Positions 9,215 through 53,139 are shown, counted from the stretch's first letter. The stretch: DNA of 64,000 nt from Bacillota bacterium (GCA_049325575.1 JBMOLK010000188.1:2758-66757), one strand, 5' to 3'. Made by a program: numbers and translations. Notes: generated from the sequence alone by a model not told the origin.

Positions 9215-9232
9215 CTTGATGCGGAGGTAGCT

Positions 9233-32498: not shown

Positions 32499-32502
32499 TT
32501 TG

Positions 32503-34548
32503 ATGGACAAAGTCTATAAAATGTTATTTGAGAATATTACTTCAGGAAAAGTTGACAGGAAAGCAGGGGTGGATATTCTAAAAGCTTTAAAGGAAGAAGA
32601 AAATCACAATACCAGAGATGATATGGCCATTATTGGAATATCTGCAAAGTTCCCTGGTGCGGAGAATATAAGTGAATTCTGGACAAACCTAAGAAGCGGA
32701 GTAAACAGTATTACAGATTTTCCGGAAAACAGACGCCAGGACTCGGATGCTTTTGTACCATTCACATATATGAAGAATGAAGATGTAAAATACTGCAAAG
32801 GTGGATATCTTAAGGAAGTAGACAAGTTCGACCATAGGTTTTTTGGAATTTCACCCAAAGAAGCAAGTCTTATGGATCCAAGTCAAAGAATCTTCCTTGA
32901 AACAGCATGGAATGCCATTGAAGATGGAGGGTACGGAGGCAAAAAACTTATGGGAAGCAGGACGGGCTTGTATATTGGATATTCCGGGTGGCCCATGTAT
33001 GGACAGTTTGTATCCCATGTTGAGCCAGCAGCTTTTGATGTCTCGGTTACAGGAAATATTTCAGCCATTATTTCAAGAAGAATACCTTACCTGATGGATA
33101 TGAGCAGTCCCAGCATGCTTATAGATACTGCATGCTCATCATCCCTTGTAGCACTCCATCTAGCATGCCAGGGCATAAGAAATGGTGATTGTGACCAGGC
33201 ATTGGTGGGAGCAATAAGACTTTTGCTGATGCCAATTGAAGGGATGATTTCATATGGCATTGAATCAAAGGACTATAACTCCAAACCTTTTGACGATAGT
33301 GCAGATGGTACAACCCTTAGCGAAGGCGTGGCTGCTATTTTGATTAAACCTTTAAGGAAAGCAATCAAGGATAGAGATAATGTCTATGCTGTTATAAAAG
33401 GAACTGCCTGCAACCAGGATGGAGGTTCAGTCGGACTTACTGCTCAAAGCGCTGCTGCCCAGGAAAATGTAATTGTTAAGGCCTGGGAGGATTCAGGCAT
33501 AAATCCGGAAACAATTTCATATATCGAAGGTTTCGGGGCTTGTACCAAGCTGGGTGATACCTTGGAAATAGAAGGCATTCAAAGGGCGTTTGGAAGATAT
33601 ACCCATAGAAAACAATTCTGTGGGATAGGATCAGTAAAATCAAATATTGGCCATCTTGATAGCTGTTCAGGACTGGCCGGACTGATAAAGTCGGTTCTTT
33701 CCCTAAAGCATAGGGAGATACCTCCTACTTTGAACTTTAGAAACCCTAATAAATCGATAAATTTTGAACAGTCACCAGTTTACATAAATGATAGATTAAA
33801 AAAATGGGACTCTGATATTGCTAAAAAAAGGTGCGGTATAAGCTCCTTTGGTTTTAGCGGTACAAACGCCCATGTTGTACTTGAAGAGGCAGCAGAGATT
33901 AATGTAGAAAGGAATTTAACAAAAAAACACTTCTTTATATTTGTTCTGTCTGCAAAAAGTAAGGAATCCCTGGAGGAGCTTATAAAAGCATATAAAGATT
34001 ATGTAAGAAATGAGAAAGAGGTAAGACTTCATGATATATGCTATACTTCCAGTACCGGAAGGGGGCATTACAATTACAGGCTGGCATTGATAGCAGAGAG
34101 TGAAGCAGAATTTACAGAGAAGCTGGAAAAACTTGACGCAGCGGAAGTCATTAATAATAGGGAAGATAATGTTTATTTTGGGTGGCATAAAGCTGTACCG
34201 GCTAATAAGGAGTTTAGACAGGACGGGGAATTGACCGAGTCTGAAATAAGAGAATACGGGAAAGCAGCAAACTTGCTGATAGACAAATACAAAAAAGATA
34301 TTTATGGGGAAAAAAGTATATTAGCAGAACTGTGCGGGTTATATGTAAAAGGAGCTGATTTAGATTGGGAGCGACTATACGAGGGTGATAAATACTACAG
34401 GATAAGTTTACCCGTATATCCCTTTGAAAGAAAAAGGTGCTGGATTAATGTAAAGAAAAAGCCTGAAGAATATATAAAACCAGGTACCAAAACAGATAAA
34501 GCCCGTTTAGAGAATGTACTTGATGAAAATATTGATTTTAAGTTTTAG
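32503..34548 (+). CDS. stand-alone non-elongating ketosynthase (KS0) with flanking linker subdomain
   Basis: The active-site Cys is retained (DTACSSSL), but the HGTGT histidine is replaced (IEGFGACTKLGD) and SNIGHLD is present. The probable start is at 32503 (MDKVYK) with a GGGGGTA RBS, not 32431. Confidence 0.75.
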   Translation: MDKVYKMLFENITSGKVDRKAGVDILKALKEEENHNTRDDMAIIGISAKFPGAENISEFWTNLRSGVNSITDFPENRRQDSDAFVPFTYMKNEDVKYCKGGYLKEVDKFDHRFFGISPKEASLMDPSQRIFLETAWNAIEDGGYGGKKLMGSRTGLYIGYSGWPMYGQFVSHVEPAAFDVSVTGNISAIISRRIPYLMDMSSPSMLIDTACSSSLVALHLACQGIRNGDCDQALVGAIRLLLMPIEGMISYGIESKDYNSKPFDDSADGTTLSEGVAAILIKPLRKAIKDRDNVYAVIKGTACNQDGGSVGLTAQSAAAQENVIVKAWEDSGINPETISYIEGFGACTKLGDTLEIEGIQRAFGRYTHRKQFCGIGSVKSNIGHLDSCSGLAGLIKSVLSLKHREIPPTLNFRNPNKSINFEQSPVYINDRLKKWDSDIAKKRCGISSFGFSGTNAHVVLEEAAEINVERNLTKKHFFIFVLSAKSKESLEELIKAYKDYVRNEKEVRLHDICYTSSTGRGHYNYRLALIAESEAEFTEKLEKLDAAEVINNREDNVYFGWHKAVPANKEFRQDGELTESEIREYGKAANLLIDKYKKDIYGEKSILAELCGLYVKGADLDWERLYEGDKYYRISLPVYPFERKRCWINVKKKPEEYIKPGTKTDKARLENVLDENIDFKF

Positions 34549-37500
34549 TGCTGGGGGGATATAATTTGACAAAAACGATTCAACAGTTGTTTGAAGAGCA
34601 GGTAGAAAAAACACCTGATAGTACTGCAGTATGGTATGAGGGTAATAAGCTTACCTTTAGAGACCTAAATGAAAAAGCCAATCAGCTTGCAAGGAAACTG
34701 CGTGAAAAAGGCGCAGGTCCCGATTGTATAACAGGTATTCTCTTTGAAAGGTCTTTGGACATGATAATTGCTATTGTTTCTGTACTAAAGGCTGGTAGTG
34801 CATATATGCCTGTTGCAGTTGATTATCCTGAAAACAGGAAAAAATACATATTGGAAGACAGCGGAGCGAAAATATTGCTGACTCAAAAACACCTTGCAGA
34901 AAGCCTTCCGCTGCTGCCAGGAGTTGATATAATTGCTATTGACGATGATAAAATCTATGGTGGAGATACGTCAAACCTCCAGGAAGGAAACAGCCCCAAG
35001 GATCTTGCATACGTTATATATACATCGGGAACTACAGGAAAGCCAAAAGGAGTTATGATTGAGAATAAAAGCGTTGTAAATCTTGTAAATGGGCTTTTCA
35101 GTCATATTTATAAAAGGTATGATTTCAGTTTAAATATTGCCCTTTTGGCGCCTTATACCTTTGATGCATCAATTAAACAGATCTTTCCATCCCTTCTTCT
35201 AGGGCATACACTATTTATTGTACCCGAGAGCATCCGGCTAGACGGAAAGGAACTTTTGAACTATTTTAACAGGAATTCAATTGACATAGCGGACGGAACT
35301 CCGGCGCATATCGGAATGCTTGCAAGTTATACGCCGCTTCTTAAAGACGAACTTGCGGTAAAGCACTTTGTTATAGGGGGAGAAGCCTTACCAGCAAAAC
35401 TGGTAAAGGAATTTTTAGACTCTATTGAAGAAAGAAAGCCTCTTGTTACAAATGTATATGGCCCTACAGAGTGCTGTGATGTTTCAACACTCTACACCAT
35501 TTATCCAAAAGAAGCTTATAGTAATAATATTATACCTATTGGGTCTCCCATAGAAAATGTAACCGTTTATATACTGGATGAAAATGAAAAAGCGGTAAAG
35601 GAAGGGACTGTGGGAGAATTATATATATCTGGAGAAGGAGTAGGTAGGGGATATTTAAATAAACCCCAGCTGACAAGCGAAAGGTTTATACCTGATCCGT
35701 TTATTAAAGGGAGAACCATGTATAAGACCGGTGATAAGGCAAGAATACTTCCGGACGGGAATATTGAATACCTGGGAAGGAATGACCATCAAGTAAAAGT
35801 TAGGGGCTTTAGAATTGAACCTGCAGAAATTGAATCGGAAATTATGGATTATGAAGCCGTAAAAGAAGCAGTAGTTATAGTAAGAGAAGAATATAGTGGT
35901 GATAAATATTTATGTGCCTACTACATATCCGACAGGGAAATCCAATCACAGGAACTTAAGGAGTTTTTAGCAAAAAGCTTGCCTTATTATATGATTCCGG
36001 CATACTTTATAAGGATGGTGAGCTTACCGCTTACGCACAACGGCAAGGTTGACAGGAATGCACTGCCCGAACCGGATATATGGGCTAACAAGGTTAAGAT
36101 TTATACAGCCCCTAAAAACGACACTGAAGAAAGAATGGCACATATATGGAAAGAAGTATTAGGTATTGGTCGGATTAGTATGGAAGATAACTTCTTTGAT
36201 TTGGGAGGACATTCCCTGAAAGCCAATATACTTGCATTCAAAATACATAAGGAGTTTAATATTGAAATACCTATAGCCGAAATTTTTGCAAATCCTACGG
36301 TCAATGATATGATAAGGTTTATGGAAGGAGCGGCAAGTAGAGATTATAAAAGTATACAACCTGTAGAGCATATGGATTTGTATCCTCTTTCCCTATCACA
36401 GAAATGGATTTTTGTCTCTAGCAGAGTAAACAGGGGAGATATTTTATGGAATATGCCGTGCTTGATGATGATTGATGGTAAACTTGATATAAAGCGTTTT
36501 GAAAATGCCCTGAACATGTTAGTGAAAAGACATGAAGCCTTTAGGACATCTTTTGAGATGACTGAACGGGGGCCGATGCAGAGAATTTATGATAATGTAA
36601 AATTGGATATATCATACATAGAGTCGGATGAAGATCAAATAGAAGGATTATTAAAGGAATTTATAAAACCCTTTGATTTAAACACCGTACCTTTATTAAG
36701 AGCGGGCCTTGCAAGAATATCTGAAGGCAAACATGCATTCTTATTTGATATTCACCATATCATATTTGATGGCTTGTCAGTAAATATCCTGTTGCGGGAA
36801 TTGGAAACTCTGTATGATGGCGGACAGCTGCCTGAATTAAAGATTCATTACAAGGACTTTGCTTACTGGGAAAATGAGCATTACATGTCAGGAGGGTTTA
36901 AAAAACAGGAAGATTACTGGTTGAAAGTTTTTAATGGCAAGATTCCGGAGCTTGATTTACATACGGATTTTCCAGGAAAACAGGAAATCGGCAATGAGGG
37001 TGACAGGGTAGTATTATCTCTAGGAGTTGATCTTACTGCCCATTTAAGAAAGTTTGCCTCAAAAGCAGGCTCATCCATTTACATGGTGTTGTTAGCTGCA
37101 TATAATATCTTGCTGTTTAAATATTCAGATCAGGAAGAAATTGTGGTAGGTACATTAACAGCAGGCAGACAGCATGCTGATCTGGAAAATATAATCGGCA
37201 TGTTTGTTAGGACCCTTGCAATGAAAAACCATCCCAAGCCATACAAAACTGCTGCTGAATTTTTAAGAGAAGTAAGGGATAACTCCTTAGCCGCATTTGA
37301 TAATCAGGAGTATCCGTTAAATCAACTTTTGGATGTACTCAAATTACCAAGAAATCTATCCAATCATCCATTATATAAAGTTATGTTTATAATGCAGAAT
37401 ATGGATAGCCCAAAGTTTAAAACGGATGGCCTTTTATTTAGACAGCATGACATTAATTTAAGGATCTCGGCATGTGATCTTATCCTGGAGGCTAGAGAAA

Positions 37501-37703
37501 ACCAAGAGGGAATAAAGCTAACTATGACTTACAAGACCAGGTTGTTTAAGAAGGAAACAATAGAGACCATGGTTTTAAACTATCTAAAGACATTGGAATT
37601 GTTAATTGTGAATCCGGATATTAAACTGTGTGATTTTGAATTGGAAGGACTACGTAAGGCTCTGGATAATGTTCTTGATGAAGATATTAATTTTAATTTT
37701 TGA
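34548..37703 (+). CDS. NRPS module A-T-C (terminal condensation domain)
   Basis: YTSGTTGKPKG, NVYGPTE, YKTGD (A); LGGHSLKANI (T); HHIIFDGLS (C). A TTG start at 34567 with a GGGGGGAT RBS is plausible. Confidence 0.9.
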   Translation: MLGGYNLTKTIQQLFEEQVEKTPDSTAVWYEGNKLTFRDLNEKANQLARKLREKGAGPDCITGILFERSLDMIIAIVSVLKAGSAYMPVAVDYPENRKKYILEDSGAKILLTQKHLAESLPLLPGVDIIAIDDDKIYGGDTSNLQEGNSPKDLAYVIYTSGTTGKPKGVMIENKSVVNLVNGLFSHIYKRYDFSLNIALLAPYTFDASIKQIFPSLLLGHTLFIVPESIRLDGKELLNYFNRNSIDIADGTPAHIGMLASYTPLLKDELAVKHFVIGGEALPAKLVKEFLDSIEERKPLVTNVYGPTECCDVSTLYTIYPKEAYSNNIIPIGSPIENVTVYILDENEKAVKEGTVGELYISGEGVGRGYLNKPQLTSERFIPDPFIKGRTMYKTGDKARILPDGNIEYLGRNDHQVKVRGFRIEPAEIESEIMDYEAVKEAVVIVREEYSGDKYLCAYYISDREIQSQELKEFLAKSLPYYMIPAYFIRMVSLPLTHNGKVDRNALPEPDIWANKVKIYTAPKNDTEERMAHIWKEVLGIGRISMEDNFFDLGGHSLKANILAFKIHKEFNIEIPIAEIFANPTVNDMIRFMEGAASRDYKSIQPVEHMDLYPLSLSQKWIFVSSRVNRGDILWNMPCLMMIDGKLDIKRFENALNMLVKRHEAFRTSFEMTERGPMQRIYDNVKLDISYIESDEDQIEGLLKEFIKPFDLNTVPLLRAGLARISEGKHAFLFDIHHIIFDGLSVNILLRELETLYDGGQLPELKIHYKDFAYWENEHYMSGGFKKQEDYWLKVFNGKIPELDLHTDFPGKQEIGNEGDRVVLSLGVDLTAHLRKFASKAGSSIYMVLLAAYNILLFKYSDQEEIVVGTLTAGRQHADLENIIGMFVRTLAMKNHPKPYKTAAEFLREVRDNSLAAFDNQEYPLNQLLDVLKLPRNLSNHPLYKVMFIMQNMDSPKFKTDGLLFRQHDINLRISACDLILEARENQEGIKLTMTYKTRLFKKETIETMVLNYLKTLELLIVNPDIKLCDFELEGLRKALDNVLDEDINFNF

Positions 37704-37726
37704 TGACCATAGAGGGAGGTAATAGA

Positions 37727-38753
37727 ATGGAAATTAAGGATTACACTAAGGAAGACGTAAAGTTCGATAAGGAGAGATCATATTGGCTCAATAAACTCCA
37801 TGGCATGTATACCAAATGATTTCCCGGATAAAGGAGAAAACGGCTATAAAAGTGCTGTTATGAGTTTTTCCTTTGACAAGGAAGTTTATGAAAGGATGAC
37901 AGCAATCAGCAATAAATCTGATTTTGCGCTATTTATTATATTACTTTCGGGGGTTAAATATATTCTGCATGAATACACCCAAAACAGCGATGTATTAACC
38001 ATAATGCCGGTATTTAAACAAAACTCTAAGAATGCTTTGCTTATAAACAGCATTCTTCCGCTCTTAACCAAACTAGATAGGAACAGAACTTTCAAGGAAT
38101 ATTTGAATGAAGTAAAAAATACCGTAGTTGATGCCAACGCCAACCAGAATTTTCCCATAATGAGTCTTATTGACCTCCTGAACGTAGAATTTGATGAAAA
38201 TGGACTCCCAATACTTGGTACGGTAGTTTCGTTAGATTCTGTTCACGATAAGGAATATATTGGAAGCTATAAGGCGGATACCCTCTTTTATTTTTACAAG
38301 GACAATGGGGACTTAAGGGTTGAAGTTGAATATAATTCCAATGCTTATGGCCAAGAAACTATAAGCCAGTTTGTAAAATATTTATTTGAATTTTTTGATG
38401 CTGTACTTAAGGTGCCGGAGAAAAGGTTAATAGATATTGAAATAATTCCAAATGAAGAGAGACAATTGATTAAGGAACGTATTGAGAGAATATGTGATTC
38501 AAAGAATAAACTAAGTTTCATGAACATAGAAGAGATTGAGGAAAAGTTAATAGAAATATGGCAGGATTTATTGGGAGTAGAAAGAGACGAAATAGAAAAT
38601 AATTCATTTTTTGAACTTGGAGGAAACTCCATGCTGGCAATTAAGCTGGAAATCGAAACTTCAAAGAAAGGGATTGTTATGAAATCTTCAGACATTTATA
38701 AATTTCAAACGGTTAAAGAGCTGTCAGCTTATATTGCAAGTAAAAATGAATGA
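37727..38753 (+). pseudogene. relic condensation-domain C-lobe plus PCP, interrupted by a frameshift near 37800-37815
   Basis: The 37727 frame reads MEIKDYTKEDVKFDKERSYWLNKLHG and stops at 37814. The 37800 frame continues with C-lobe-like FALFIILLSGVKYILHEYTQNSDVLTIMPV and FFELGGNSMLAIK (T). Confidence 0.5.
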
Positions 38754-39077: not shown

Positions 39078-39413
39078 ATGGAATTAATGCAGATAAGAAA
39101 TTTGGCACAAAAGGTGAAGGAGAATATCAGCCGGTTCATTGTCGGTAAAGATGAAGTAGCCGACTTACTGCAGGTTGTACTGATTTCATCGGGACGTGTA
39201 CTTTTGGAGGATGTGCCCGGAACGGGTAAAACACTGCTCTCCAAAGCAATGGCCAAATCACTTAACACTTCATTTAGAAGGATTCAATTCACTCCAGATC
39301 TTCTTCCTCCAGATCTTCTTCCTCCAGATCTAAGCGGTATCAGTTTTATAACCAAGAGATGGAAAGTTCGAGTTCCGGACGGGTTCGATCTTTTCAAATA
39401 TATGCTGTTTTAA
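39078..39413 (+). pseudogene. truncated MoxR-family AAA+ ATPase fragment with in-frame 15-bp tandem duplication
   Basis: VLLEDVPGTGKTLLSKAMAKSL (Walker A) and RIQFTPDLLP, then PDLLPPDLLPPDL. After this, similarity to MoxR is lost and the ORF ends at 111 aa. Full-length MoxR proteins are ~320 aa. Confidence 0.6.
39294..39331 (+). repeat. tandem direct repeat CCAGATCTTCTTCCT x2.5
   Basis: Exact 15-mer copies at 39294-39308 and 39309-39323, then a partial copy. Confidence 0.9.
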
Positions 39414-39881: not shown

Positions 39882-40499
39882 ATGCATAAAATTAAAGTTA
39901 TGATTATTGACGATGATTTAGATTGGATTGAGACAATGAGGGGTTTCCTAGATAATTATGATGAGATTTCAATTATTGCAACTGCAAACAATAGAACGGA
40001 TGCTGTTGAACTTGTAAAAACTCTTGATATTGACATAGTTCTATTGGATGTAAACTTTAAAGGCAAAAATGAAGGAATGTGTATAGCATCGGATATACAC
40101 AGATTAAAGAACCAAACAAAGATTATAATGCTAACTTGTATGGACCAGGAGGAAATTATTCTAAACTCTTTTTTGATGGGGGTATCAAACTATATCTACA
40201 AAACAAACTATAGACAAGTTCCTTATATAATAAGAGACATGTATAACAATGTTTCGCCAATCGAAATACTTGCAAGAAAGTACTTTAACCAGCAAAAAGA
40301 AAAACAACTTGAAGTGTTAACTCGTACAGAAAAGGAGATCTTTAAACTGATTGAAAGTGGATATACCCAATCACAGATAGCGCGGCTGCAGTTTAAAACA
40401 AAAGGTACTCTTAGGAGTCAAGTCAATAAAATAATAAAGAAGCTAGGTGTTAGAAACAGCAAGGAAGCTGTAAACATTTTTAGACTTGAGAACACTTGA
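39882..40499 (+). CDS. orphan response regulator, receiver + LuxR/FixJ-type HTH
   Basis: MIIDDD...LLDV receiver, and C-terminal LTRTEKEIFKLIESGYTQSQIA...GTLRSQVNKIIKKLGV. Confidence 0.8.
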   Translation: MHKIKVMIIDDDLDWIETMRGFLDNYDEISIIATANNRTDAVELVKTLDIDIVLLDVNFKGKNEGMCIASDIHRLKNQTKIIMLTCMDQEEIILNSFLMGVSNYIYKTNYRQVPYIIRDMYNNVSPIEILARKYFNQQKEKQLEVLTRTEKEIFKLIESGYTQSQIARLQFKTKGTLRSQVNKIIKKLGVRNSKEAVNIFRLENT

Positions 40500-40682
40500 A
40501 ATAAGAGTTTAGTACTACATAAACAATGTGGAAATGCTCAGAGTCAGCGAATCTTAATAATATAAAAAAAGAGGTTTAATGTTATTGTATTATTTTAAAC
40601 TATGTAAGTTTATAGTACCATTCTTAAACAACATATTGTATAATATAACAATGCGGCACAATGAAGGCTTAGAAATTAAGAG

Positions 40683-41228
40683 GTGGTTTGGCAAGTGAGC
40701 TTACATGATGGCAGAAGTACAGAAGAGTTTGATGATATACCTAAGGTTCGACCCTGGATAAGGTATTGGGCCAGAGTTATGGATATACTTTTATTTGGCA
40801 TAATTGTTGGCATAATTCAGGTTGTATTCTTTCCGAGGAAAGTTTTTGATGATCCAATGCTGGGAGCAGGACTTCTAATTTTCTGGATCTTTATAGAAGC
40901 AAAGCTGTTATCAACATGGGGAACAACCCCGGGTAAATGGCTCCTTAAAACAAAAGTCAGGGGTTCTGATTCAAATATACTCACTTTCGTAGCTGCCCTA
41001 AAGAGAAGCTTTCTGGTGTGGCTTATAGGTATGGGAATGGGCTTGTTTTCTCTTGTTACAATGATTATCGCTTACTTAAATTTAAGTACCAGGGATATTA
41101 CATCGTGGGACAGGCAATGCGGGTGCAGAGTTATTCATGAGAAAATAGGTTTTGCGAGGGCTGTTGCTGTTGTACTGATAGTGCTTTTGTTTTATTTGTT
41201 GGTTTTTGTCTCGGCAATCATAAGATAA
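40683..41228 (+). CDS. membrane protein, possibly RDD family
   Basis: 3-4 TM helices and an RYWARVMDILLF N-terminal region. Confidence 0.35.
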   Translation: MVWQVSLHDGRSTEEFDDIPKVRPWIRYWARVMDILLFGIIVGIIQVVFFPRKVFDDPMLGAGLLIFWIFIEAKLLSTWGTTPGKWLLKTKVRGSDSNILTFVAALKRSFLVWLIGMGMGLFSLVTMIIAYLNLSTRDITSWDRQCGCRVIHEKIGFARAVAVVLIVLLFYLLVFVSAIIR

Positions 41229-41407
41229 AACAATTAAAACAATATTGACAAATACAGTATATTGTATTTAAAATTAAATAATATAGATATATTACATAGA
41301 AAATTCAAATTACTTAGCCAATGTGAGTAAACTTGTTCTTTCAATTTCTGCTTAATAGTTATGAGATTTAGAAGGGTTTACAATTTTCCACAAAACAAAG
41401 GAGATAA

Positions 41408-42037
41408 GTGATGTTTGAATTATTAAAAACAGCCATAACAGGAGTAAATATTATTCCTACTACACTGTTGGGGTTGGCTGTTTTATACTGGTTGATTGTT
41501 ATTCTAGGGGCAATTGATATTGATTTTCTCGATTTTGATCTGGACGTTGAAGGTGATCCTGTAACGGGTCCTTTTCATGGAATTTTGGCATTTCTGAATG
41601 TGTCCTATCTTCCATTCATGCTTGTGTTCAGTATTATCACTCTTATTTTTTGGGTTTTATCAATGTTGATGCACCTGTTACCAATCGAAACCGGTGGTCT
41701 TATTAGTGGCATTTTGTTTATTCCAAACCTGGTGCTAAGTGTAGTTATTACAGGAGCTGTCACATATCCTCTAAAAGGCTTGTTTAAAGATGCGTATAAG
41801 GCCGGTAACAAAGAGGATAGGATTGAGGGCAAGCTGTGCACCCTTTTGTGCGACCTGACCTTTGGACGCCTTGGGCAGGCTGAAGTAAAGAGAGATGGAG
41901 CCTCTTATGTTATTAATGTGAAGGTAGAGGAAGGCGAAAACCTCAAAAAGGGAGATAAAGCACTGGTAATAAGCAAAGATGTTGAGAAGAGTTTTTATAT
42001 TGTAAAAAAATTTGAAGGAGTGGGGGTAGAAAGATGA
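41408..42037 (+). CDS. NfeD-like membrane protein (C-terminal OB-fold)
   Basis: N-terminal TM helices. The C-terminal segment KLCTLLCDLTFGRLGQAEVKRDGASYVINVKVEEGENLKKGDKALVI resembles an NfeD beta-barrel. The stop overlaps the flotillin start. Confidence 0.6.
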   Translation: MMFELLKTAITGVNIIPTTLLGLAVLYWLIVILGAIDIDFLDFDLDVEGDPVTGPFHGILAFLNVSYLPFMLVFSIITLIFWVLSMLMHLLPIETGGLISGILFIPNLVLSVVITGAVTYPLKGLFKDAYKAGNKEDRIEGKLCTLLCDLTFGRLGQAEVKRDGASYVINVKVEEGENLKKGDKALVISKDVEKSFYIVKKFEGVGVER

Positions 42038-44136
42038 ATTTTCCATTACAAATCACAGTTGCTGCAATAGTAGTTGCCTTTATTTTTATTTTAGGCTTGT
42101 TTGCTATGTTCTCAAAATTTTACCGCAAGGTAGAGCAGGGTAAAGTAATTCTTAGAAACGGTGTGGGAGGCCCCGTTGTTTCTTTTGGTGGTATTATTGT
42201 AATTCCCATACTGCACCATGCAGAAATTATGGATATATCTGTAAAGAGAGTTGAAATTGCAAGAGAAGGTAAGGATGGACTTATTTGTAAGGACAATTTG
42301 AGGGCGGATATTAGGGTTGCATTCTTTGTACGCGTCAACCAGACAAGGGAAGATGTACTGAAGGTTGCACAGCTCCTAGGCTGTCAAAAAGCTTCAGATC
42401 CCGGAACACTTATGGAATTCTTTGATGCCAAGTTTTCTGAGGCATTGAAAACCGTTGGTAAACAATTCGACTTTGTACAGCTCTATACTGAAAGAGAAAA
42501 ATTTAAGTATGAGATTCTTCAGATCATAGGCACTGATCTTAACGGCTATGTTCTTGATGATGCTGCCATTGATTATCTTGAGCAGACTGATATAGGAAAG
42601 CTAAACAGCAATAATATACTTGATGCGGAAGGTATCAAAAAGATTACCGAGCTGACTTCAAAGCAGCTGGTTCTTGCCAATCAAATCGAGCGCGATAAGG
42701 AAAAAACCATAAAGCAGCAGAATATTACCTCCAGAGAGGCAATTTTGGAACTTGAAAAGCAAAACCAGGAAGCGGAAGCCCGTCAAGAAAGGGAGATCGC
42801 AATTATTAGGGCAAGAGAGAAGGCTGAAGCGGATAAGGTAGCACAGGAAGAACGCCTGAAGGCTGAAATGGCACGTATTAAAGCAGATGAAGAAATAGCC
42901 ATTGCAGAGGAAAACAGACAAAGACAGGTAATAGTCGCACAAAAATCAAAAGAGAGTACTGAAGTAGTAGAAGCAGAACGTGTTGATAGAAAACGACTGC
43001 TTGAGAAGACTGAAAAGGAAAAGCTGGTTGAGCTGGCTGAAATTGATAAGCTTAAATCTGTTGAAGAAGAAAAGAAGAATATTCAGACTGTTATCCGTGA
43101 AAGAGTAGCAGTTGAAAAAGACGTTGTAATTGAAGAAGAGAGAATCAAGGATACCAGGGCAATTGCCGAAGCAGAACGTCTAAAGGCAATCGCTTTAAAG
43201 AAGGCTGAAGAGCAGGCTGAAATGAAGCTTATTTTGGATGTTAAGACCGCAGAAGCAGCAAAGCAGGCTTCGGAAAAGCTTGCCGAACAAAGAATAATTG
43301 AAGCGGATGCCAAACTAAAGTCTTCTGAAAAAGAGGCTGAAGCAATTAAGACCATTGTTGACGCCGAGGTGCTACAAGAAGCTACTAAAGGACTTGCAGA
43401 GGCTCGCGTCATCGAAGCAAAAGCAAGTGCTCTTGAAAAAGAAGGGGCTTCAAAGGCTAGAATACTGCAGTCAACCGCTGAAGCTGAAGCCAAGGCAATT
43501 GAGGCGAAGGCTCTTGCTGAAGCTAAGGGTGAGGAAGCAAAGGTTAGTGTTAAGGAAAAAGCCGGAACAGTCGAGGCTGAAATTCTAGCTAAAAAATACC
43601 ATGCCGAGGCTGAAGGTATTGCTCAAAAGGCAAACAGCATGAAAGCTCTTGATGAAGCAGGAAGAATTCATGAAGAGTTTAAGCTTAAGCTTGATAAAGA
43701 GAAGGAAATTGAGCTTGCCAATATTAATATAATGAAGGAAGTTGCAGAGGCACAGGCTTCAGTCATAAGGGAAGCACTGAAGTCTGCAAAAATCGATATT
43801 GTGGGCGGGGAAACAATGTTCTTCGACAAGATCATAGGATCAATATCACAAGGTAAGTCGTTTGACCGTATGATAGGAAGCAGTGATGTGTTAAAGGACA
43901 TAAAAGAGACATTTATTGTTGGTGATCCTGATTATTTTAAAGGTCAGCTTGAGAAATTTGTATCAAGGTTTAATATGACTTCGGAAGACATAAAGAACCT
44001 TACAATTTCCGGAGCAATTCATAAAATGATGCGCAGTGCAAATTCATCGGAAATACCTATGCTTTCAAAGCTTTTGGATGCAGTAGAAAAAGCAGGCTTT
44101 GCCGATGCACCTGCAGCTTCTGTAACAGAAAAATAG
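42034..44136 (+). CDS. flotillin/SPFH (band 7) family protein with extended E/A/K-rich coiled coil
   Basis: N-terminal TM, SPFH domain, then ~350 aa of EA-repeat coiled coil (AEAERLKAIALKKAEEQAE...). Confidence 0.8.
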   Translation: MNFPLQITVAAIVVAFIFILGLFAMFSKFYRKVEQGKVILRNGVGGPVVSFGGIIVIPILHHAEIMDISVKRVEIAREGKDGLICKDNLRADIRVAFFVRVNQTREDVLKVAQLLGCQKASDPGTLMEFFDAKFSEALKTVGKQFDFVQLYTEREKFKYEILQIIGTDLNGYVLDDAAIDYLEQTDIGKLNSNNILDAEGIKKITELTSKQLVLANQIERDKEKTIKQQNITSREAILELEKQNQEAEARQEREIAIIRAREKAEADKVAQEERLKAEMARIKADEEIAIAEENRQRQVIVAQKSKESTEVVEAERVDRKRLLEKTEKEKLVELAEIDKLKSVEEEKKNIQTVIRERVAVEKDVVIEEERIKDTRAIAEAERLKAIALKKAEEQAEMKLILDVKTAEAAKQASEKLAEQRIIEADAKLKSSEKEAEAIKTIVDAEVLQEATKGLAEARVIEAKASALEKEGASKARILQSTAEAEAKAIEAKALAEAKGEEAKVSVKEKAGTVEAEILAKKYHAEAEGIAQKANSMKALDEAGRIHEEFKLKLDKEKEIELANINIMKEVAEAQASVIREALKSAKIDIVGGETMFFDKIIGSISQGKSFDRMIGSSDVLKDIKETFIVGDPDYFKGQLEKFVSRFNMTSEDIKNLTISGAIHKMMRSANSSEIPMLSKLLDAVEKAGFADAPAASVTEK

Positions 44137-44308
44137 TAAATGATGAAACAGGGTGCACATCCTTTTTTGCCCCAAGTTGTGTAGAGAGCTTTGAAACTTA
44201 AGTTCTTGGAACAATCTGGGGCATATATGAAAAATGCACCAGGTAAAATAAAAAGGGTCAATAATGTTTGCGCTATCCCTTAAAGGAAAAGATGAGGTGT
44301 AAATAGCT

Positions 44309-47300
44309 GTGGATGAAATAAAGACGGAACAGACCGAACAAAAATCTGCACATTTGGACAGTGGCGCATATGAGGTTATAAAAAACAGGTTAATCAAGCA
44401 TGGTAATGACCTTAAAGAGCGCCTTGATAAATTAAACACTGCCAGAAAGAATGTTTTTGGTTCAATAGAAACAACCCTTTTAGGAAGCGAACGGATTATT
44501 ACAGAAAACAACTGTATCCCACGAGATATGGCTCCCGTGGGAACTTCCTTTATTTTTGGGTATAATGTATATATGGGGCTTAAGTCTAAAATAGATCTTG
44601 AGGATGTTTTTTCCATATATGAGTTTAAGGATCATGCTTTCCAGAAGCTCTCTTTATCACTCATAGAAGATGGTCAGTTTAAGACTGATTTCAATGAGCT
44701 GTATACCTATTATAAAAACACTTTTTTCGCAAAATTCTCTGTAATCGGGCCGTATCTTTACATGATATTCCAAATCGGAAAAAATGCATCCGATATCAAA
44801 GCCTTCAAGTGGATTATTGAAGATGGAAAGCTTAGATACATCGATAACAGAAGTGACCATGAGGTAAGGTTTACAGCCCGGCAGGAATTTGGCTGGGTCA
44901 GGGTCAGAAGGGAAGACCACAGAGATGGACTGCATCCTCATGTCTCTATCCTGGATAAGGTCTTTGTTGAGACTATAGGCGGAGACCTTACCATAAAGGT
45001 TGAGGATAACACCGATACCGGGAAGGGAATCTACTCTGAAGAAGTAGAGGATAAGGATCAAACCCTGGATGATGCGGAGATGTTGTATGCGGTGGTAGGG
45101 CATATAATCCTGCTTAAGATCCGTCCCTACAAGGAAAAAAGATATCGCCACTTTATTTTTAATGAGAAGCTTAAGAATGTTGTCCGTATTGATGCCATAG
45201 AAGATGCATGTGTGCTGCTGCCGGATGATCACGGCCTTATTTTTCCCAAAGGCTATTATTTAAAAAGCGGAGAATATAAATTGTTCGATGTTCCGGTTGA
45301 GACATGCATTTTTGAGCAAAGGATCGAGTCTCCAAACGGTGAAGATTATCAGTACTTTTTCTATAATATAGAGAGCGGAATTTATCTTATTTATTCATAC
45401 AATGTGATTGAACAGACACTGGAAACACCCATTGTTTGTAACGGTTATTCCCATTTTAAAAACGGTGAAATGATTGTTTTCAGGCAGGAGAATGAGCCCA
45501 GGAAGAACCATATGATCCAGATATGGCAGACTCCTTATGTAGGGAAAAATCATGTAACCGAAACAAAAAACGACTCTATCCTTTTTAAGATAGGAAACAA
45601 GGATATTGTCCGCTCCATGGCAGACTGCAAAGTGGTGTACAACCTGATACAAAAGGGAGAGAGCTATGCAGACATCTATGTGGATATTGTAAAAGAAGCG
45701 GACCAAATTATTGATTCCTATTTCTGGCTAAGCAAGGAAGAGGCCTTTGATTTAAAAAGCGTTCTTGTGAATATAAGAGAAGCTTCAGCTTCTGCTGTAG
45801 CAGAGTTTGAAAAAGTTACAAGAATCAAAACTGCAACTTTAAAACAAATTAATGACGTGGATGAGAAAGCTCAAAAGCTGTTAAAGGATATTGAATATGG
45901 AAATTTCAACAGCATCAGTGAATATGTTGGAGTTTTGGCAAACTTGAGAATTCTAAGGGGAGAGGTTGCCTCGTTAAAAGACTTGAGGTATACAAATCTT
46001 CCTATGGTTGAATCACTGGAAGCTAAGGTTAAGGAAAAAAACGAGCTGTTCTCCCAAAGATGTGTGGAGTTTTTACTGCATCCCGATGGTTTGAAGCCCT
46101 ATATGGAAAGGGTAAAGGAGCATGAGCAGGCAATTGCCCAGGTAAGTAAGGCATCAATAGGTAAAGAGCTTTCAGATGGCATGTCCAAAACTTCTTCAGA
46201 TCTTGAGCTGTTGATTGATATTGTAAGTAATTTCAAGATAGAGGATGCTACTAAAACAACGGAGATTATTGAAAATATTTCTCTTATATATTCACAATTA
46301 AATGGAGCCAAAGCAAAGCTCAAAACCCGTATGGATGAGCTTTCACAAAAGGAGGGAGCAGCCCAGTTTAACTCCCAGGTGAAGCTTTTGGACCAGGCGG
46401 TAGTCAATTATCTCGATATATCGGATTCTATAGAAAAGTGTGAACAATACCTAAGTAAGGTAATGGTTCAAATTGAGGAATTGGAAGGAAAGTTCGCAGA
46501 TTTTGAGGAGTATGTCTTAAAACTTTCGGAAAAGCGAGAAGAGCTTTACAACGCTTTTGAGACCAAAAAGCAGGCACTTCTGGAAAAACAAAATAAAAAG
46601 CTGACAGCTCTGGCAGGTGCATCCGACCGTATTTTAAAGGGGATTGTAAACAGGCTGCAGGGCTTTAACACTATAGATGAGATCAATGGCTATTTTGCCA
46701 CTGATATTATGATAGAAAAGGTCAGAGATATTGTAGACCAGCTTACTGCTTTAGGTGACAGTGTAAAGGCTGATGAGCTTGAGGGCAGGCTTAAAACCAT
46801 AAAAGAGGATGCGGTACGTCAGCTAAAGGATAAACAAGACCTTTTTGTAGGCGGAAAAAATGTTATAAAGTTTGGAAACCATTATTTTTCTGTAAATACC
46901 AAGCAGCTTGACCTTTCAATGGTACAAAAGGATGATGAGCTATACTTTCATATTTCAGGAACGGATTTTTGGGAAAAGGCAGAATCAGATAAATTAAACC
47001 GGTTCCGTCATGTATGGGATCAGGAGATTCCATCGGAGAACAGGGAGGTTTACCGGGCCCAGTATCTTGCTTATAAGATATTTGAAGCTTCACAGAATAA
47101 AGAAGCAGATAGTGTTGAAGTACTCTTAACGTACCCGGATGAACAGCTGCTTTTATTTATACAAAAGTTTATGGAATCCCGCTACCAGGAGGGCTATACC
47201 AAGGGAGTACATGATGTTGACTGTCATAAGATACTAAAAGCTCTTATGAATTTGTATAAAAGTATTGATCTTTTGATTTACAGTTCTTCCGCAAGGGCCC

Positions 47301-49270
47301 TGGCACAGCTTTACTGGTGCCGCTTTGCAAGAGAGGAAATGAAGGAAACCCTGGGCACTAGATTAAGAGAACTTTCAAAAATCTCAATGTATTTTAAAAC
47401 CAAACCGGACTTAAAGGATTATATACCTGCAGTAAAGGCTTCCATAGAGGAAGCCATACCGGGTATCCCGTTTTTTGATAGAAAATTTGTTCCTGAAGCT
47501 GCAGAATACCTATGCAGCGAATTAATGAGGGGAGATACCTTTGTAATAAGTCTTGAGGCCCAGGAGATTTATCTTAAGTTTATTAGTCATCTTAAAGAGA
47601 AGAAAGCCCTTGAGTTCTTTAACGAATCACTTAAGGCTGTCTCTAAGGACCTGGAGGGCTCATTCTACCTTATCCGCGAGTGGTTATTTGCACTTTTTGA
47701 TGAACTAGGGTTAAAGAACCGGTTTGATGTAATTGATGAAGTAATTATAATGATTATGCTAAACAGCTATAACAGCAAGCAGGTAGTAGAGACAAGGACA
47801 AAGCTTAATGTTACAGGCCTTGGCGGAAATCATCCTAATATTAAAAACGGGGAATTTACCGCCTCTTATACAGAGTTCATAGAAAGGCTTAAAAATTATG
47901 ACAGTACTATAGTTAGAGACTTTATAGAGTTTCAGGCCTTAAAGAAAGAGCTTACACAAAACTTACGGGAAGAGCTTAGGCTTGATGAATTCAAACCGGG
48001 TGTGCTGTCGTCCTTTGTAAGAAACAAGCTTATAGATAAGGTTTATCTTCCGCTTATTGGAGACAATCTTGCCAAGCAGATAGGAGTGGCAGGTGAGAAC
48101 AAGAGGACCGACCTGATGGGAATGCTTTTGCTGATTTCTCCTCCGGGGTATGGAAAAACGACTCTTATGGAGTATATTGCAAGCCGTCTTGGCATTACCA
48201 TGATAAAAATAAACGGACCTGCCCTAGGCCACGAAGTCACTTCATTAGACCCTACCATGGCTAAGAATGCAAGTGCAAAGGAGGAGCTAAGGAAGCTGAA
48301 CCTGGCTTTTAAAATGGGAAACAACGTTATGATTTATGTTGATGATATTCAACACTGCAACCCAGAGTTCTTACAGAAGTTTATTCCTCTATGTGACGGG
48401 CAGAGAAAGATAGAAGGCGTATATAAAGGGGTTGGTCAGACCTATGACCTAAGGGGAAAGAAGGTTGCGGTTGTAATGGCAGGAAACCCTTATACCGAAA
48501 GCGGTGAGAAGTTTAAGATCCCTGACATGCTTTCCAACAGGGCGGATGTTTACAACCTGGGAGATATGCTAAAAGAAAATAAGGAAGCCTTTATGCTAAG
48601 TTATATTGAAAACTGTATAACGTCCAATCCAGTTTTAAGTAAGCTTTCAAACAAGAGCCAGAAAGATATCTATACCTTTATTGAAATTGCGGAGAGAGGG
48701 GAAAGGGATGGACTAAACTTTGAAGGCAATTACTCTATCGAAGAGATAAATGAATTTGTTGAGGTAATAAAAAAGCTTATAAGGATTCGGGATATTGTAT
48801 TAAAAATAAACATGGAATACATTCATTCTGCCGCTCAAGCCGATGAGTACAGGAAAGAACCTCCCTTTAAGCTTCAAGGCTCTTATAGGAATATGAATAA
48901 AATTGCTGAAAGAATAGTGCCTGTTATGAACGACCAGGAGCTTTCAGAGCTTGTCCTGGGTGTTTATGAAAATGATGCCCAGACCTTGACAACAGGTACA
49001 GAGGCAAATATGCTCAAGTGGAAAGAGATCGCGGGCTGTCTTAGTGAGAAGGAGAGCTTACGCTGGGAAGAAATAAAGGTCCTGTTTAACAAGAATAAAC
49101 TTGTAAAAGGTGACGATAAAATAGGTCAGGCAGTTTTAATGTTAAGCGACTTTGGTTCATCCCTAAAAGACCTGGTTGATGTAATGACCAAGATAAAAGA
49201 AACCCACAGTCTTGGAGTTGACAAATTTGTTGAACGCTTGTCACAGGTTAATAAAAAAAGTGAAAAATAG
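44309..49270 (+). CDS. 1653-aa uncharacterized protein: N-terminal globular region, long central coiled coil, C-terminal AAA+ (MoxR/AAA_5-like) ATPase
   Basis: Walker A LLLISPPGYGKTTL (~48.13 kb), Walker B VMIYVDDIQH, and an AGNPYTE...IPDMLSNRADV sensor region. Heptad-rich E/K segments span 45.7-46.9 kb. Confidence 0.5.
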   Translation: MDEIKTEQTEQKSAHLDSGAYEVIKNRLIKHGNDLKERLDKLNTARKNVFGSIETTLLGSERIITENNCIPRDMAPVGTSFIFGYNVYMGLKSKIDLEDVFSIYEFKDHAFQKLSLSLIEDGQFKTDFNELYTYYKNTFFAKFSVIGPYLYMIFQIGKNASDIKAFKWIIEDGKLRYIDNRSDHEVRFTARQEFGWVRVRREDHRDGLHPHVSILDKVFVETIGGDLTIKVEDNTDTGKGIYSEEVEDKDQTLDDAEMLYAVVGHIILLKIRPYKEKRYRHFIFNEKLKNVVRIDAIEDACVLLPDDHGLIFPKGYYLKSGEYKLFDVPVETCIFEQRIESPNGEDYQYFFYNIESGIYLIYSYNVIEQTLETPIVCNGYSHFKNGEMIVFRQENEPRKNHMIQIWQTPYVGKNHVTETKNDSILFKIGNKDIVRSMADCKVVYNLIQKGESYADIYVDIVKEADQIIDSYFWLSKEEAFDLKSVLVNIREASASAVAEFEKVTRIKTATLKQINDVDEKAQKLLKDIEYGNFNSISEYVGVLANLRILRGEVASLKDLRYTNLPMVESLEAKVKEKNELFSQRCVEFLLHPDGLKPYMERVKEHEQAIAQVSKASIGKELSDGMSKTSSDLELLIDIVSNFKIEDATKTTEIIENISLIYSQLNGAKAKLKTRMDELSQKEGAAQFNSQVKLLDQAVVNYLDISDSIEKCEQYLSKVMVQIEELEGKFADFEEYVLKLSEKREELYNAFETKKQALLEKQNKKLTALAGASDRILKGIVNRLQGFNTIDEINGYFATDIMIEKVRDIVDQLTALGDSVKADELEGRLKTIKEDAVRQLKDKQDLFVGGKNVIKFGNHYFSVNTKQLDLSMVQKDDELYFHISGTDFWEKAESDKLNRFRHVWDQEIPSENREVYRAQYLAYKIFEASQNKEADSVEVLLTYPDEQLLLFIQKFMESRYQEGYTKGVHDVDCHKILKALMNLYKSIDLLIYSSSARALAQLYWCRFAREEMKETLGTRLRELSKISMYFKTKPDLKDYIPAVKASIEEAIPGIPFFDRKFVPEAAEYLCSELMRGDTFVISLEAQEIYLKFISHLKEKKALEFFNESLKAVSKDLEGSFYLIREWLFALFDELGLKNRFDVIDEVIIMIMLNSYNSKQVVETRTKLNVTGLGGNHPNIKNGEFTASYTEFIERLKNYDSTIVRDFIEFQALKKELTQNLREELRLDEFKPGVLSSFVRNKLIDKVYLPLIGDNLAKQIGVAGENKRTDLMGMLLLISPPGYGKTTLMEYIASRLGITMIKINGPALGHEVTSLDPTMAKNASAKEELRKLNLAFKMGNNVMIYVDDIQHCNPEFLQKFIPLCDGQRKIEGVYKGVGQTYDLRGKKVAVVMAGNPYTESGEKFKIPDMLSNRADVYNLGDMLKENKEAFMLSYIENCITSNPVLSKLSNKSQKDIYTFIEIAERGERDGLNFEGNYSIEEINEFVEVIKKLIRIRDIVLKINMEYIHSAAQADEYRKEPPFKLQGSYRNMNKIAERIVPVMNDQELSELVLGVYENDAQTLTTGTEANMLKWKEIAGCLSEKESLRWEEIKVLFNKNKLVKGDDKIGQAVLMLSDFGSSLKDLVDVMTKIKETHSLGVDKFVERLSQVNKKSEK

Positions 49271-49294
49271 TTTTATACCGAAAATTTGCTGTTT

Positions 49295-49350
49295 AAAAAA
49301 AAGATGCATTGAACACACAAGTCATGATAAGTGCTCGATGCATCTTTTTT
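49295..49350. terminator. bidirectional terminator between convergent genes
   Basis: Perfect 13-bp stem AAAAAAGATGCAT/ATGCATCTTTTTT with A-run and T-run flanks. Confidence 0.7.
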
Positions 49351-49366
49351 ACGTATATTTTATAAA

Positions 49367-49576
49367 CTACCATGATCCAGAGTACTGTTTTCTCGGAATG
49401 ATAAACCAGCATATAAAGTAAGCCAGAATTGAACTTCCAGCGAAAAAGGCAAATAATACCCAAATAATTCTTACTATTGTGGTATCAATACCAAAATACT
49501 CACCGAGGCCGCCGCAAACGCCTCCTATTTTTTTGTCTGTATCCGAAAGGTATAGTTTTTTCTCCATTATAAACAC
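49367..49576 (-). CDS. PspC-domain membrane protein
   Basis: [33 protein letters not shown] followed by a TM helix. Confidence 0.7.
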
Positions 49577-49823
49577 TCCAATCCATGTGATTTTATAAAT
49601 ATATACGGCTAAGTCCGATTATTTGTCTGACTAAATTCGATAAAAATCAGGGCGTTTTAATTTTTATAAAGGTAACTTTAGCTGTTTTAGTTTTATATAC
49701 TAAAGATAGAAAGAATACTTTAACATTATTTTGCAATAACCTTGATTTGAGAGTTATATACTGGTAAAATATTTAAATGAATTTTATAAGGGTGTGAGTT
49801 TTTTAGGAGGAAAGAGAAGTTAA

Positions 49824-50990
49824 ATGAAATTTAAAAGCTTTGTCGTACTGGCTTTAATATTAACTATGCAGATTCTGCCACTGAATGCTTTTGGGTTATA
49901 CAATAAAACCTATAGATTAGAGGATTTAAAAACTGATTGTATTCCGATAATAGAACTTGTAAGTGATAGTGGGGGAAATATTGAATGGGATTTGGAAAAT
50001 ATAATAGCAAAGGTATCTTTAGAAGAAGTTACATATGGGTTCAAAATAAATACTGATCATACAGTAGACCTCTTAAAAGAAGGTGTCAACTACGGAAAGT
50101 TTGATACCGAGGACGCAAGATATGTCATGGAGTTTCAAGACGGGAGGCTAAATGCTGGTTTGTATATAAATAGAAGCTCCTTTAACAGGTGTTTTGATAA
50201 ACTTAATAAAGGGACTTATACAAAGAATGACTTTTTTAGAGCCGGTGACGAAAGATTGTCCGATTTGGCCAAAAGTATCATTGTAGATATTGAAAATCAG
50301 TATGGCAACCTTACTGGTAATGTTGTTCCAAGAGCAGAAGCGGAGCTTGTAAGAACACTTGATAAGGCTGTGAAAAAACATAAAATCAGAGGACCCGGAA
50401 ACAAATATAATATTAAGACAACATTACATACCATTATGAGTTTACAGAAGGATATAGACTACTACAGTAAAACCACCGGAATTCCGCGGGAGATGGTAAG
50501 CTCAATATTATTCAGGGAAATGATGTGTATTGGAATTGATGATGTTTTTGATGGTATCAATTCTGATAAGAATACAAAGGGCATTGGGCAGCTAAGCGTC
50601 GCAGGCGTTAGAATTAATGAAAACAAGATAGAAGAGCTTTCGCAAGGCAGAAGGCCTGCAAAATTCAAAAATATAAAGGACTATCAATTAAACAAGATGT
50701 TACTGGACCCTGGTGATTGTGTATACTTTACATCTAGTCAGCTTAAGGCAAGGGCAATGGAATATGCGGGGTTTGCATATGAAGAGGAAATTGACATATA
50801 TGATGAAAACAGTATTAAAATGATTTTGGCAGAGTATAATCAGGCTGACGGAAAAGCTATATTTAATTTGCCGGACATATACAACTTTTATAAAGACAAG
50901 ATTACTTACGGTGAACAGGTTTATGAATATTACAAGGCCTTCCGGGAGTATTACAGGGTTGTAAGTGCAAATAAGGTGGTGGACACCTAA
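49824..50990 (+). CDS. secreted hypothetical protein (signal peptide)
   Basis: MKFKSFVVLALILTMQILPLNAFG signal, with no confident domain. Confidence 0.35.
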   Translation: MKFKSFVVLALILTMQILPLNAFGLYNKTYRLEDLKTDCIPIIELVSDSGGNIEWDLENIIAKVSLEEVTYGFKINTDHTVDLLKEGVNYGKFDTEDARYVMEFQDGRLNAGLYINRSSFNRCFDKLNKGTYTKNDFFRAGDERLSDLAKSIIVDIENQYGNLTGNVVPRAEAELVRTLDKAVKKHKIRGPGNKYNIKTTLHTIMSLQKDIDYYSKTTGIPREMVSSILFREMMCIGIDDVFDGINSDKNTKGIGQLSVAGVRINENKIEELSQGRRPAKFKNIKDYQLNKMLLDPGDCVYFTSSQLKARAMEYAGFAYEEEIDIYDENSIKMILAEYNQADGKAIFNLPDIYNFYKDKITYGEQVYEYYKAFREYYRVVSANKVVDT

Positions 50991-52377: not shown

Positions 52378-53139
52378 ATGAAAAAGAATAAAATGGTATT
52401 ATGCTGCATTTTGACGGCTGTGTTGGTTCTGGTTAATGGAGGACTTTATGGATTTGCACAACCTGTGCAGGAGAGTGGTACCTTGTTTAACGAACTTTCC
52501 GAGCCGGATACCATTATGTTTGGGGATACAAATGGAGACGGCATAGTAAACTCTACGGACTATATACTGGTATCAAGATATATTCTTGGCACTATCAGCA
52601 GCTTTCCATATGATAAGGGCATTATTACAGCAGACACAAATGCAGACGGATTTGTAAATTCAACAGACTCTTCACTTATTAAAAGGTATGTTTTAGATAT
52701 TATTAGTAAGTTTCCGGCTGAAGCCGTAGTTCAAAATATGCCCCAGAAGGTTTTTGAGTTTAACTATACAAACCATGCCTGGGCTTATTATAATAGGGGA
52801 TGGTACATAGACAACAGCGGGAATATCTACTATTACGACTATGCAAAGGAACCAAAAGAGGAAAAGCTTATAGGCAGTATTTCAAAAAAAGAGCTTGTGG
52901 AAAAGTTTTTATATCTTTTAAAAGCTTCTAATAATGAAAAATATGAGTCATATCATAGGGGGTTTGATATGGGAGCTTTGACCTACAAGGGGTATGTGCC
53001 AGGGGCAGCAGTTGGTGAGGAGAAAGAGGTTGTTCTTTTTGTGGATGGTGATTGGGTAGAATACAATACTTGCCCATTTGCAAAGTCTTTGGTGGACTGG
53101 ATGAAAAGCTTGGAAGAGACTTATCCTGAAATTTATTAA
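52378..53139 (+). CDS. cellulosomal dockerin type I protein with small unknown C-terminal domain
   Basis: Signal peptide, then duplicated Ca-binding segments DTNGDGIVNSTDYILVSRYILG and DTNADGFVNSTDSSLIKRYVLD. Confidence 0.85.
   Translation: MKKNKMVLCCILTAVLVLVNGGLYGFAQPVQESGTLFNELSEPDTIMFGDTNGDGIVNSTDYILVSRYILGTISSFPYDKGIITADTNADGFVNSTDSSLIKRYVLDIISKFPAEAVVQNMPQKVFEFNYTNHAWAYYNRGWYIDNSGNIYYYDYAKEPKEEKLIGSISKKELVEKFLYLLKASNNEKYESYHRGFDMGALTYKGYVPGAAVGEEKEVVLFVDGDWVEYNTCPFAKSLVDWMKSLEETYPEIY

Follow-up and report, generated by a model that had tools for sequence, protein, structure and literature searches.

A conserved three-gene operon for a YqiJ-like protein, a YqiK-type flotillin and a giant DUF3686-family ATPase in a Bacillota bacterium

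The window analysed here is a stretch of 64,000 nucleotides (nt) from a Bacillota bacterium (GCA_049325575.1, JBMOLK010000188.1:2758-66757), in which our subject is a set of three adjacent plus-strand genes encoding a YqiJ/NfeD-like protein, a YqiK-type flotillin and a giant soluble ATPase of the DUF3686 family. The first gene occupies 41408..42037 (209 residues, or 208 if translation begins at ATG 41411), the second 42034..44136 (700 residues), with a 4-nt overlap with the preceding stop, and the third 44309..49270 (1653 residues), whilst a gene for a small PspC-domain membrane protein (49367..49576, minus strand, 69 residues; Pfam PspC, PF04024, E 1.8e-26) converges upon them. These four open reading frames (ORFs) are all present as an earlier, preliminary description of the stretch had placed them. 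A gene call on an identical public contig yields the same genes, with the start of the YqiJ-like gene 3 nt and that of the PspC gene 9 nt further in; for the latter, ATG 49567 behind GGAG is the probable start, giving 66 residues. An identical 1653-residue protein is also recorded from a Bacillota metagenome-assembled genome.

Candidate expression signals lie at both ends of the three genes. A candidate sigma-70-type promoter on the plus strand (41245..41274, TTGACA-18 nt-TAAAAT, matching the consensus at 11 of 12 positions) is placed in the gap between an RDD gene and the YqiJ-like gene, and was the top-scoring site in a scan of positions 40400-50000. Downstream, between the giant gene and the convergent PspC gene, the terminator proposed in the preliminary description proves to be a real hairpin (49297..49350), with 20-nt arms (49297-49316 and 49331-49350) that are 90% complementary and separated by 14 nt; an A-run borders one side of the hairpin and a T-run the opposite side. 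The RNA fold has a dG of -22.1 kcal/mol (z -4.62), equalled by 0 of 200 shuffles, and, judged on these features, the hairpin could serve both genes as a transcription terminator in the two directions. Bases 41245-49350 are a single operon comprising the YqiJ-like, flotillin and giant ATPase genes.

The giant protein, for which no obvious named family had been seen in the preliminary description, matches three Pfam entries: DUF3686 (PF12458) over residues 34-472 (E 6.8e-184, scoring 612 bits where the cut-off is 25 and spanning the whole profile, positions 1-448 of 448), DUF7902 (PF25472) over residues 594-676 (E 8.6e-25, 87 bits against a cut-off of 26) and AAA over residues 1273-1393 (31.7 bits against a cut-off of 21.2). 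Its relatives, to which NCBI gives the name 'DNA repair ATPase', fall into more than 5190 homologue clusters, and among the matches listed 119 share 59-76% full-length identity with it; the family is therefore a named one, albeit uncharacterised. An exhaustive search of 1.84 billion proteins with residues 1-480 recovered 742 representative clusters, in which all full-length matches measure 1600-2036 residues, indicating that the DUF3686 domain is confined to one architecture. The protein has no transmembrane segment (maximum Kyte-Doolittle 19-mer score 1.23).

Structure models of the giant protein (predicted local distance difference test, pLDDT, 72-74; 74.4 for a model of residues 480-1653) together with sequence motifs divide it into four parts, all encoded on the plus strand. 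The DUF3686 domain (44408..45724) is modelled as a long helix followed by some seven four-strand groups in a beta-propeller-like arrangement, and the helical region beyond it (residues ~480-845, 45746..46843, including the DUF7902 match) as consecutive helical bundles. Where the preliminary description proposed about 400 residues of heptad-rich coiled coil, the helical region itself is borne out, but its ~370 residues are modelled as helices of 20-58 residues packed in spectrin-repeat-like bundles, with no continuous coiled coil. A small beta domain and a helical middle domain follow (residues ~852-1190, 46862..47878), as delineated by predicted secondary structure with no fold assigned, and the protein ends in an AAA+ module (residues ~1230-1600, 47996..49108) that carries a beta-hairpin ahead of the sensor-1 strand.

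Both nucleotide-binding motifs of the AAA+ module, reported in the preliminary description as SPPGYGKTT and IYVDDIQH, are intact. Walker A (SPPGYGKTT) comprises residues 1277-1285 (48137-48163, plus strand) and Walker B (MIYVDDIQH) residues 1341-1349 (48329-48355, plus strand), with DD in the place of the usual DE; the DD form recalls the DDIQ motif of DnaA-type AAA+ proteins. N1393 is the candidate sensor-1 residue and R1411 the candidate arginine finger; in 24 orthologues, drawn from at least eight phyla, neither these two residues nor Walker A nor the DD of Walker B varies. Conservation along the giant protein peaks in the AAA+ core (0.79-0.91 majority identity) and is lowest over residues 1001-1200 (0.40-0.48). 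Sequence and profile searches of the PDB with the giant protein returned matches limited to about 45 residues round the P-loop (RuvB, p97). As regards the MoxR/NorQ-type ATPases (AAA_5, AAA_3), with which the preliminary description compared the module, ClpA and Cdc48 match the AAA+ module about as well as NorQ does, the three-gene cassette contains no VWA partner gene, and the giant protein carries ~1230 extra N-terminal residues. As a separate observation, orthologues other than those of Clostridia and of some Bacteroidota bear a C-terminal extension of 70-170 residues that the window protein does not have (examples being the giant genes of loci L023, L026, L035, L049, L058, L066 and L075), and several of these extensions have in common a motif resembling (V/I)xSRxPxxxLxxMxxQFxLMxxWxxP.

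When scanned singly, the 209- and 700-residue proteins of the window fall below every Pfam and NCBIfam threshold. Family alignments were built for both from orthologues of other phyla and compared with YqiJ and YqiK of E. coli MG1655, and these comparisons confirm the NfeD and flotillin labels of the preliminary description, though the window proteins themselves are without Pfam support. Using hhalign, the profile of the 700-residue family aligned with YqiK over 424 columns, covering positions 9-448 (probability 100%, E 9.9e-41), and that of the 209-residue family with YqiJ over 181 columns (probability 95.9%, E 6e-9), the latter alignment running on through the C-terminal beta-rich part of the family. 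Pfam YqiJ_N is matched by 15 of 21 orthologues of the small protein (best E 6.3e-8; the window protein alone gives E 0.32), and the Pfam NfeD C-terminal domain weakly by three of the 21 (best E 0.019). By hydropathy the YqiJ-like protein has about three hydrophobic segments; it also has a loop that is acidic and rich in D, and its C-terminal domain is beta-rich.

The flotillin begins with a membrane anchor and continues with an SPFH domain, a long helical region rich in E, A and K, which aligns with the coiled coil of YqiK, and a conserved C-terminal part; its hydrophobic windows begin at residues 1-13 and 42-48, again by hydropathy. Orthologues are publicly named 'flotillin family protein' or YqiK, and precomputed PF01145 annotation exists for part of the close relatives. 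Pfam Band_7 is matched by only one of 22 aligned orthologues (E 3.8e-7) and not by the window flotillin, for which a profile search of the PDB gave a weak QmcA match in the coiled-coil region (E 3e-4). Taken together, these profile comparisons identify the two proteins as an NfeD-like/flotillin unit of the YqiJ/YqiK type.

To quantify the linkage of the three genes, loci were scanned in one genome per species, giving 80 loci from Clostridia, Planctomycetota, Bacteroidota, Verrucomicrobiota, Desulfobacterota, Omnitrophota, Hydrogenedentota and Chitinispirillaceae, of which the 64 with at least 3 kb upstream of the ATPase gene were considered informative. The order YqiJ-like, flotillin, ATPase, on the same strand, is kept in 61 of these 64, across at least eight phyla, with median gaps of 18 nt between the first two genes and 122 nt between the last two, such that the neighbourhood whose conservation the preliminary description had left to be checked is indeed conserved. 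Two of the three exceptions, one in a Desulfobacteraceae and one in a Bacteroidia genome (L058, L074), encode a full-length ATPase, but the 10 kb flanking its gene on each side contain neither partner, and the partner genes may lie elsewhere in those genomes. The third (L075) yielded no YqiJ-like gene and has an AbiEii toxin gene (8715-9383) inserted between the flotillin and ATPase genes. Other material is found at the same junction in L059, where the gene for a DUF3784 membrane protein intervenes (9179-9928), and in L067, which has three small family-less ORFs there (8256-9955). Clustering of all other flanking ORFs revealed no fourth gene conserved across lineages.

The three proteins differ in how closely they are conserved. 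Across 60 loci the pairwise identity has a minimum of 45% and a median of 52% for the ATPase, 49% and 55% for the flotillin, and 16% and 28% for the YqiJ-like protein, and the values for the ATPase rise and fall with those for the flotillin (Pearson 0.85). These high and correlated values indicate that the cassette is inherited as a unit, under constraint unusually strong for so large a protein; judging by the sequences compared, it has probably also been transferred between lineages as a unit. We regard the identity of the parts, and the three genes as one unit, as highly probable.

An operon of this type has been described in silico. In a comparative analysis, Ravi et al. (mSystems 2024, PMC11237479) reported an operon that combines a CesT/Tir-PspA pair, a three-transmembrane (3TM) protein of the YqiJ/YuaF type, a band-7/flotillin protein and an ATPase with beta-propeller, coiled-coil and AAA+ regions, placed it within the phage-shock-protein (PSP) network of the envelope-stress response, and noted that 'abbreviated' operons without PspA are widespread; ANH61663.1 of Dokdonia donghaensis is an example in their Table S3. 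That description is one of comparative genomics only and gives the ATPase no family name. The window matches the published operon in its three core proteins, in their order and in the domains read from them, and is a further example of the type. It differs in that models of low sensitivity detected no CesT/Tir-PspA pair in it, a PspC-domain gene adjoining the cassette instead, and accordingly it fits the abbreviated form. The full form is reproduced by Bacteroidota loci of our own survey, whose gene order is that of the ANH61663.1 locus: CesT/Tir-PspA lies directly upstream of the cassette in seven of them, and in a survey of 144 flanking genes from 36 loci the commonest Pfam families were PspA_IM30 (seven genes) and CesT_Tir_1 (six genes). 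On account of this adjacency, and of the place given to the operon in the PSP network, we infer that the context of the cassette is best read as pointing to a role in membrane stress, in keeping with one half of the 'membrane-stress or anti-phage module' of the preliminary description; that the module is conserved and membrane-associated holds as well, in contrast to the anti-phage half, considered below.

PspC itself, which the preliminary description counted as part of the module, is a neighbour of the cassette and not a conserved component of it, since it adjoins the cassette in only two of the 80 other loci (L009 and L017), where it lies upstream and is divergent. No PspC gene was found beside the cassette in three further close relatives; a 66-residue convergent gene next to that of the closest relative (L083) was tested as a hidden PspC and is unrelated.

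Two-gene units of the YqiJK type are among the closest known relatives of the first two proteins. E. coli YqiJ-YqiK, B. subtilis YuaF-FloT and Shewanella SO1376-SO1377 are homologous to them and share the gene order and the tight coupling, but unlike the window cassette these units have no ATPase gene; the window flotillin is, moreover, ~150 residues longer than E. coli YqiK (700 as against 553). The Shewanella pair was also considered as a possible source of the 'repair' label in the NCBI product name and was rejected, being a two-gene unit without the ATPase. Neither a 2009 paper on SPFH evolution nor a 2026 paper on Pseudomonas SPFH proteins mentions the third gene.

The findings set out so far, namely the domain identities, a soluble ATPase, strict linkage, co-inheritance and recurrent adjacency to PspA in Bacteroidota, permit a mechanism to be proposed. 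The SPFH and coiled-coil parts of the flotillin would face the cytoplasm, and the flotillin and YqiJ-like protein would oligomerise together into a scaffold at the membrane's cytoplasmic surface, a step modelled on the solved SPFH-NfeD and HflK/C-FtsH assemblies. The ATPase would dock on this scaffold by way of its propeller and helical arm, such propeller-like domains and helical repeats being typical protein-protein interaction modules, and would spend ATP to assemble, remodel or dismantle it during membrane stress. PspA polymers, encoded elsewhere in the genome, might be a second substrate, and in the lineages with CesT/Tir-PspA the ATPase may act upon them. What we infer is that the proteins make physical contact, and likewise which substrate is acted upon and in which direction remodelling runs. 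For the view that the ATPase remodels assemblies of flotillin, and possibly of PspA, beneath the membrane at the expense of ATP, we put the chances slightly below even; the explanation as a whole, i.e. a three-gene operon of the abbreviated Ravi form whose ATPase remodels a scaffold, seems to us somewhat more probable than its negation.

The action proposed would resemble that of Vps4 on ESCRT-III, or of FtsH inside HflK/C, and the extent of each likeness can be stated. HflK/C-FtsH and QmcA-YbbJ are solved SPFH cages, one of which encloses an AAA+ protease, and offer precedents for an SPFH scaffold tied to an AAA+ machine and for an SPFH-NfeD pair, respectively. However, HflK/C faces the periplasm (PMC2636767), and the AAA+ protein of the window, ~1000 residues longer, is soluble and lacks a protease domain, with no common ancestry with FtsH visible beyond the AAA+ fold. 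As for ESCRT-III/Vps4 (archaeal CdvB/CdvC), the Bacteroidota operons likewise pair a membrane-remodelling polymer, PspA, which is an ESCRT-III relative, with an AAA+ ATPase; no MIT domain was detected in the giant protein, however, its AAA+ module has no close sequence resemblance to Vps4, and the link to PspA is limited to seven of 80 loci, so that the likeness is functional and an analogy only. According to a 2025 review (PMC7619361), bacteria seem to have no Vps4-like ATPase, and the role of PspA's band-7 partners is undetermined. That the DUF3686 ATPase is this missing bacterial Vps4 counterpart, disassembling or recycling PspA and/or flotillin polymers in membrane repair, is a bolder proposal, which we consider unlikely.

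Several observations weigh against the remodelling mechanism. Many YqiJK pairs, including those of E. coli and Shewanella, function without such an ATPase, and literature searches on DUF3686/PF12458, on DUF7902 and on 'repair ATPase' with flotillin retrieved no experimental work on the ATPase family. The structure models are of moderate confidence, with poor superpositions on known propellers (TM-scores 0.2-0.3). Read from sequence, the pore-loop-1 region (consensus NGPAIGHxVTSLDP) contains no aromatic-hydrophobic-Gly motif, so that threading of a substrate is not indicated, and the DD form of Walker B may signify slow, switch-like hydrolysis. No PspA accompanies the cassette in 73 of the 80 loci, and in the window the search models for PspA and CesT, which are Bacteroidota-built and of low sensitivity, found no match; the link to PspA may consequently hold for one lineage only.

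Two other roles for the ATPase can be envisaged on the same flotillin scaffold. The flotillin cage might confine client membrane proteins, as in HflK/C-FtsH or S. aureus FloA-NfeD, with the AAA+ protein serving as an unfoldase or chaperone in their quality control and the scaffold not itself the substrate; yet the ATPase has no protease domain, no membrane anchor and, from its sequence, no recognisable pore-loop motif, and its propeller and some 700 residues of helical repeats would suggest docking on a large polymer rather than on single clients. Alternatively, the giant protein might be mainly structural, lying spectrin-like under the membrane on flotillin platforms, with the AAA+ module as a nucleotide-controlled switch of oligomerisation and not a motor. 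The absent pore-loop motif and the DD Walker B would suit a switch-like or a scaffold role equally well, but the spectrin-like matches are generic matches to three-helix bundles, and the AAA+ core, as the most conserved part of the protein with its candidate catalytic residues all invariant, fits a working enzyme. We give both of these roles the same rather small chance, below that of the Vps4 counterpart.

Roles without a scaffold fare less well still. A patchy taxonomic distribution, variable flanking genes, the combination of a giant ATPase with membrane partners and the AbiEii toxin gene inside the cassette of L075 might all be expected of an anti-phage or abortive-infection module that senses membrane damage caused by phage. 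Against this, PADLOC (PADLOC-DB 2.0.0, dated 2023, newer systems lying outside its coverage) gave for the ATPase only IetA (E 2e-3) and mad8 (E 3e-3), noise at the level of the P-loop region, and no match for its partners. The enrichment in defence islands, put forward for checking in the preliminary description, was likewise not found among the 144 flanking genes of the 36 loci, where two protein kinases are the sole repeated matches to defence models and the flanks consist of housekeeping or regulatory genes. Identity of at least 45% over ~1650 residues across phyla is, furthermore, very high for a defence gene, and we judge a defence function highly improbable. The remaining possibility, that the protein is a RuvB-related DNA repair ATPase as its NCBI/Pfam name implies, appeals to that product name and to weak matches to RuvB_N and the RuvB equivalogs. 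The similarity to RuvB spans just 45-50 residues or so round the P-loop (1257-1308 in the equivalog alignment), however, and the scores, 23-24 bits against NCBIfam cut-offs of 282-299 for the equivalogs and 24.4 against 27 for RuvB_N, lie below threshold and do not support the name. Searches of the giant protein found no DNA-binding domain, its obligate partners are two membrane proteins, and the literature searched offers the name no backing, such that a repair function of this kind is scarcely credible.

Two questions are touched by the scaffold-remodelling explanation: what bacterial flotillins do, and how polymers resembling PspA/ESCRT-III are regulated without Vps4. A soluble ATPase of ~1650 residues that is nearly always co-encoded with a flotillin/NfeD pair, is conserved at housekeeping-like levels (no less than 45% identity across eight or more phyla) and stands beside PspA in some lineages offers a concrete handle on both. 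Whilst the operon type and its domain reading were already published in 2024, and the family has its Pfam entries, the present analysis adds a quantified linkage, a first structural outline of the ATPase and the demonstration that PspC is not a conserved partner, and finds both the 'DNA repair' name and the defence reading unsupported.

The remaining genes around the cassette in the window, which include polyketide synthase (PKS)/nonribosomal peptide synthetase (NRPS) genes, a response regulator, an RDD protein and a dockerin protein, are none of them conserved beside it. Directly upstream, on the plus strand at 39882-41228, lie genes for a response regulator of the LuxR/GerE type and a membrane protein of the RDD family, neither of which adjoins the cassette in any of the 80 other loci. 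The truncated MoxR gene of the preliminary description is present further upstream (39078-39413, plus strand, 111 residues); it matches AAA_3 profile positions 2-42 of 131 as well as the bpMoxR N-terminus, and appears to be what is left of a MoxR gene, with no relation to the cassette. Preceding it are the hybrid PKS/NRPS genes (32431-38753, plus strand), encoding a ketosynthase protein of 705 residues, an adenylation-peptidyl carrier protein-condensation (A-PCP-C) module of 1051 residues and a C-PCP protein of 317 residues, which are probably the end of a larger biosynthetic cluster.

Beyond the PspC gene, a 388-residue protein with a hydrophobic N-terminus is encoded at 49824-50990 on the plus strand; it is matched by neither Pfam nor PADLOC and lacks a counterpart among the 80 loci. 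An Rfam scan of the whole window (1-64000) returned no family at gathering score. Among ORFs of at least 200 residues in the window, 33 of 35 lie on the plus strand, and GC skew is positive in all 2-kb bins, consistent with a long leading-strand gene stretch. Finally, the window contains a gene for a dockerin type I protein (52378-53139, plus strand), and in a close relative (L084) a cohesin/carbohydrate-binding module (CBM) scaffoldin gene (14800-17034) adjoins the cassette; together these genes point to a cellulosome-bearing clostridial host.

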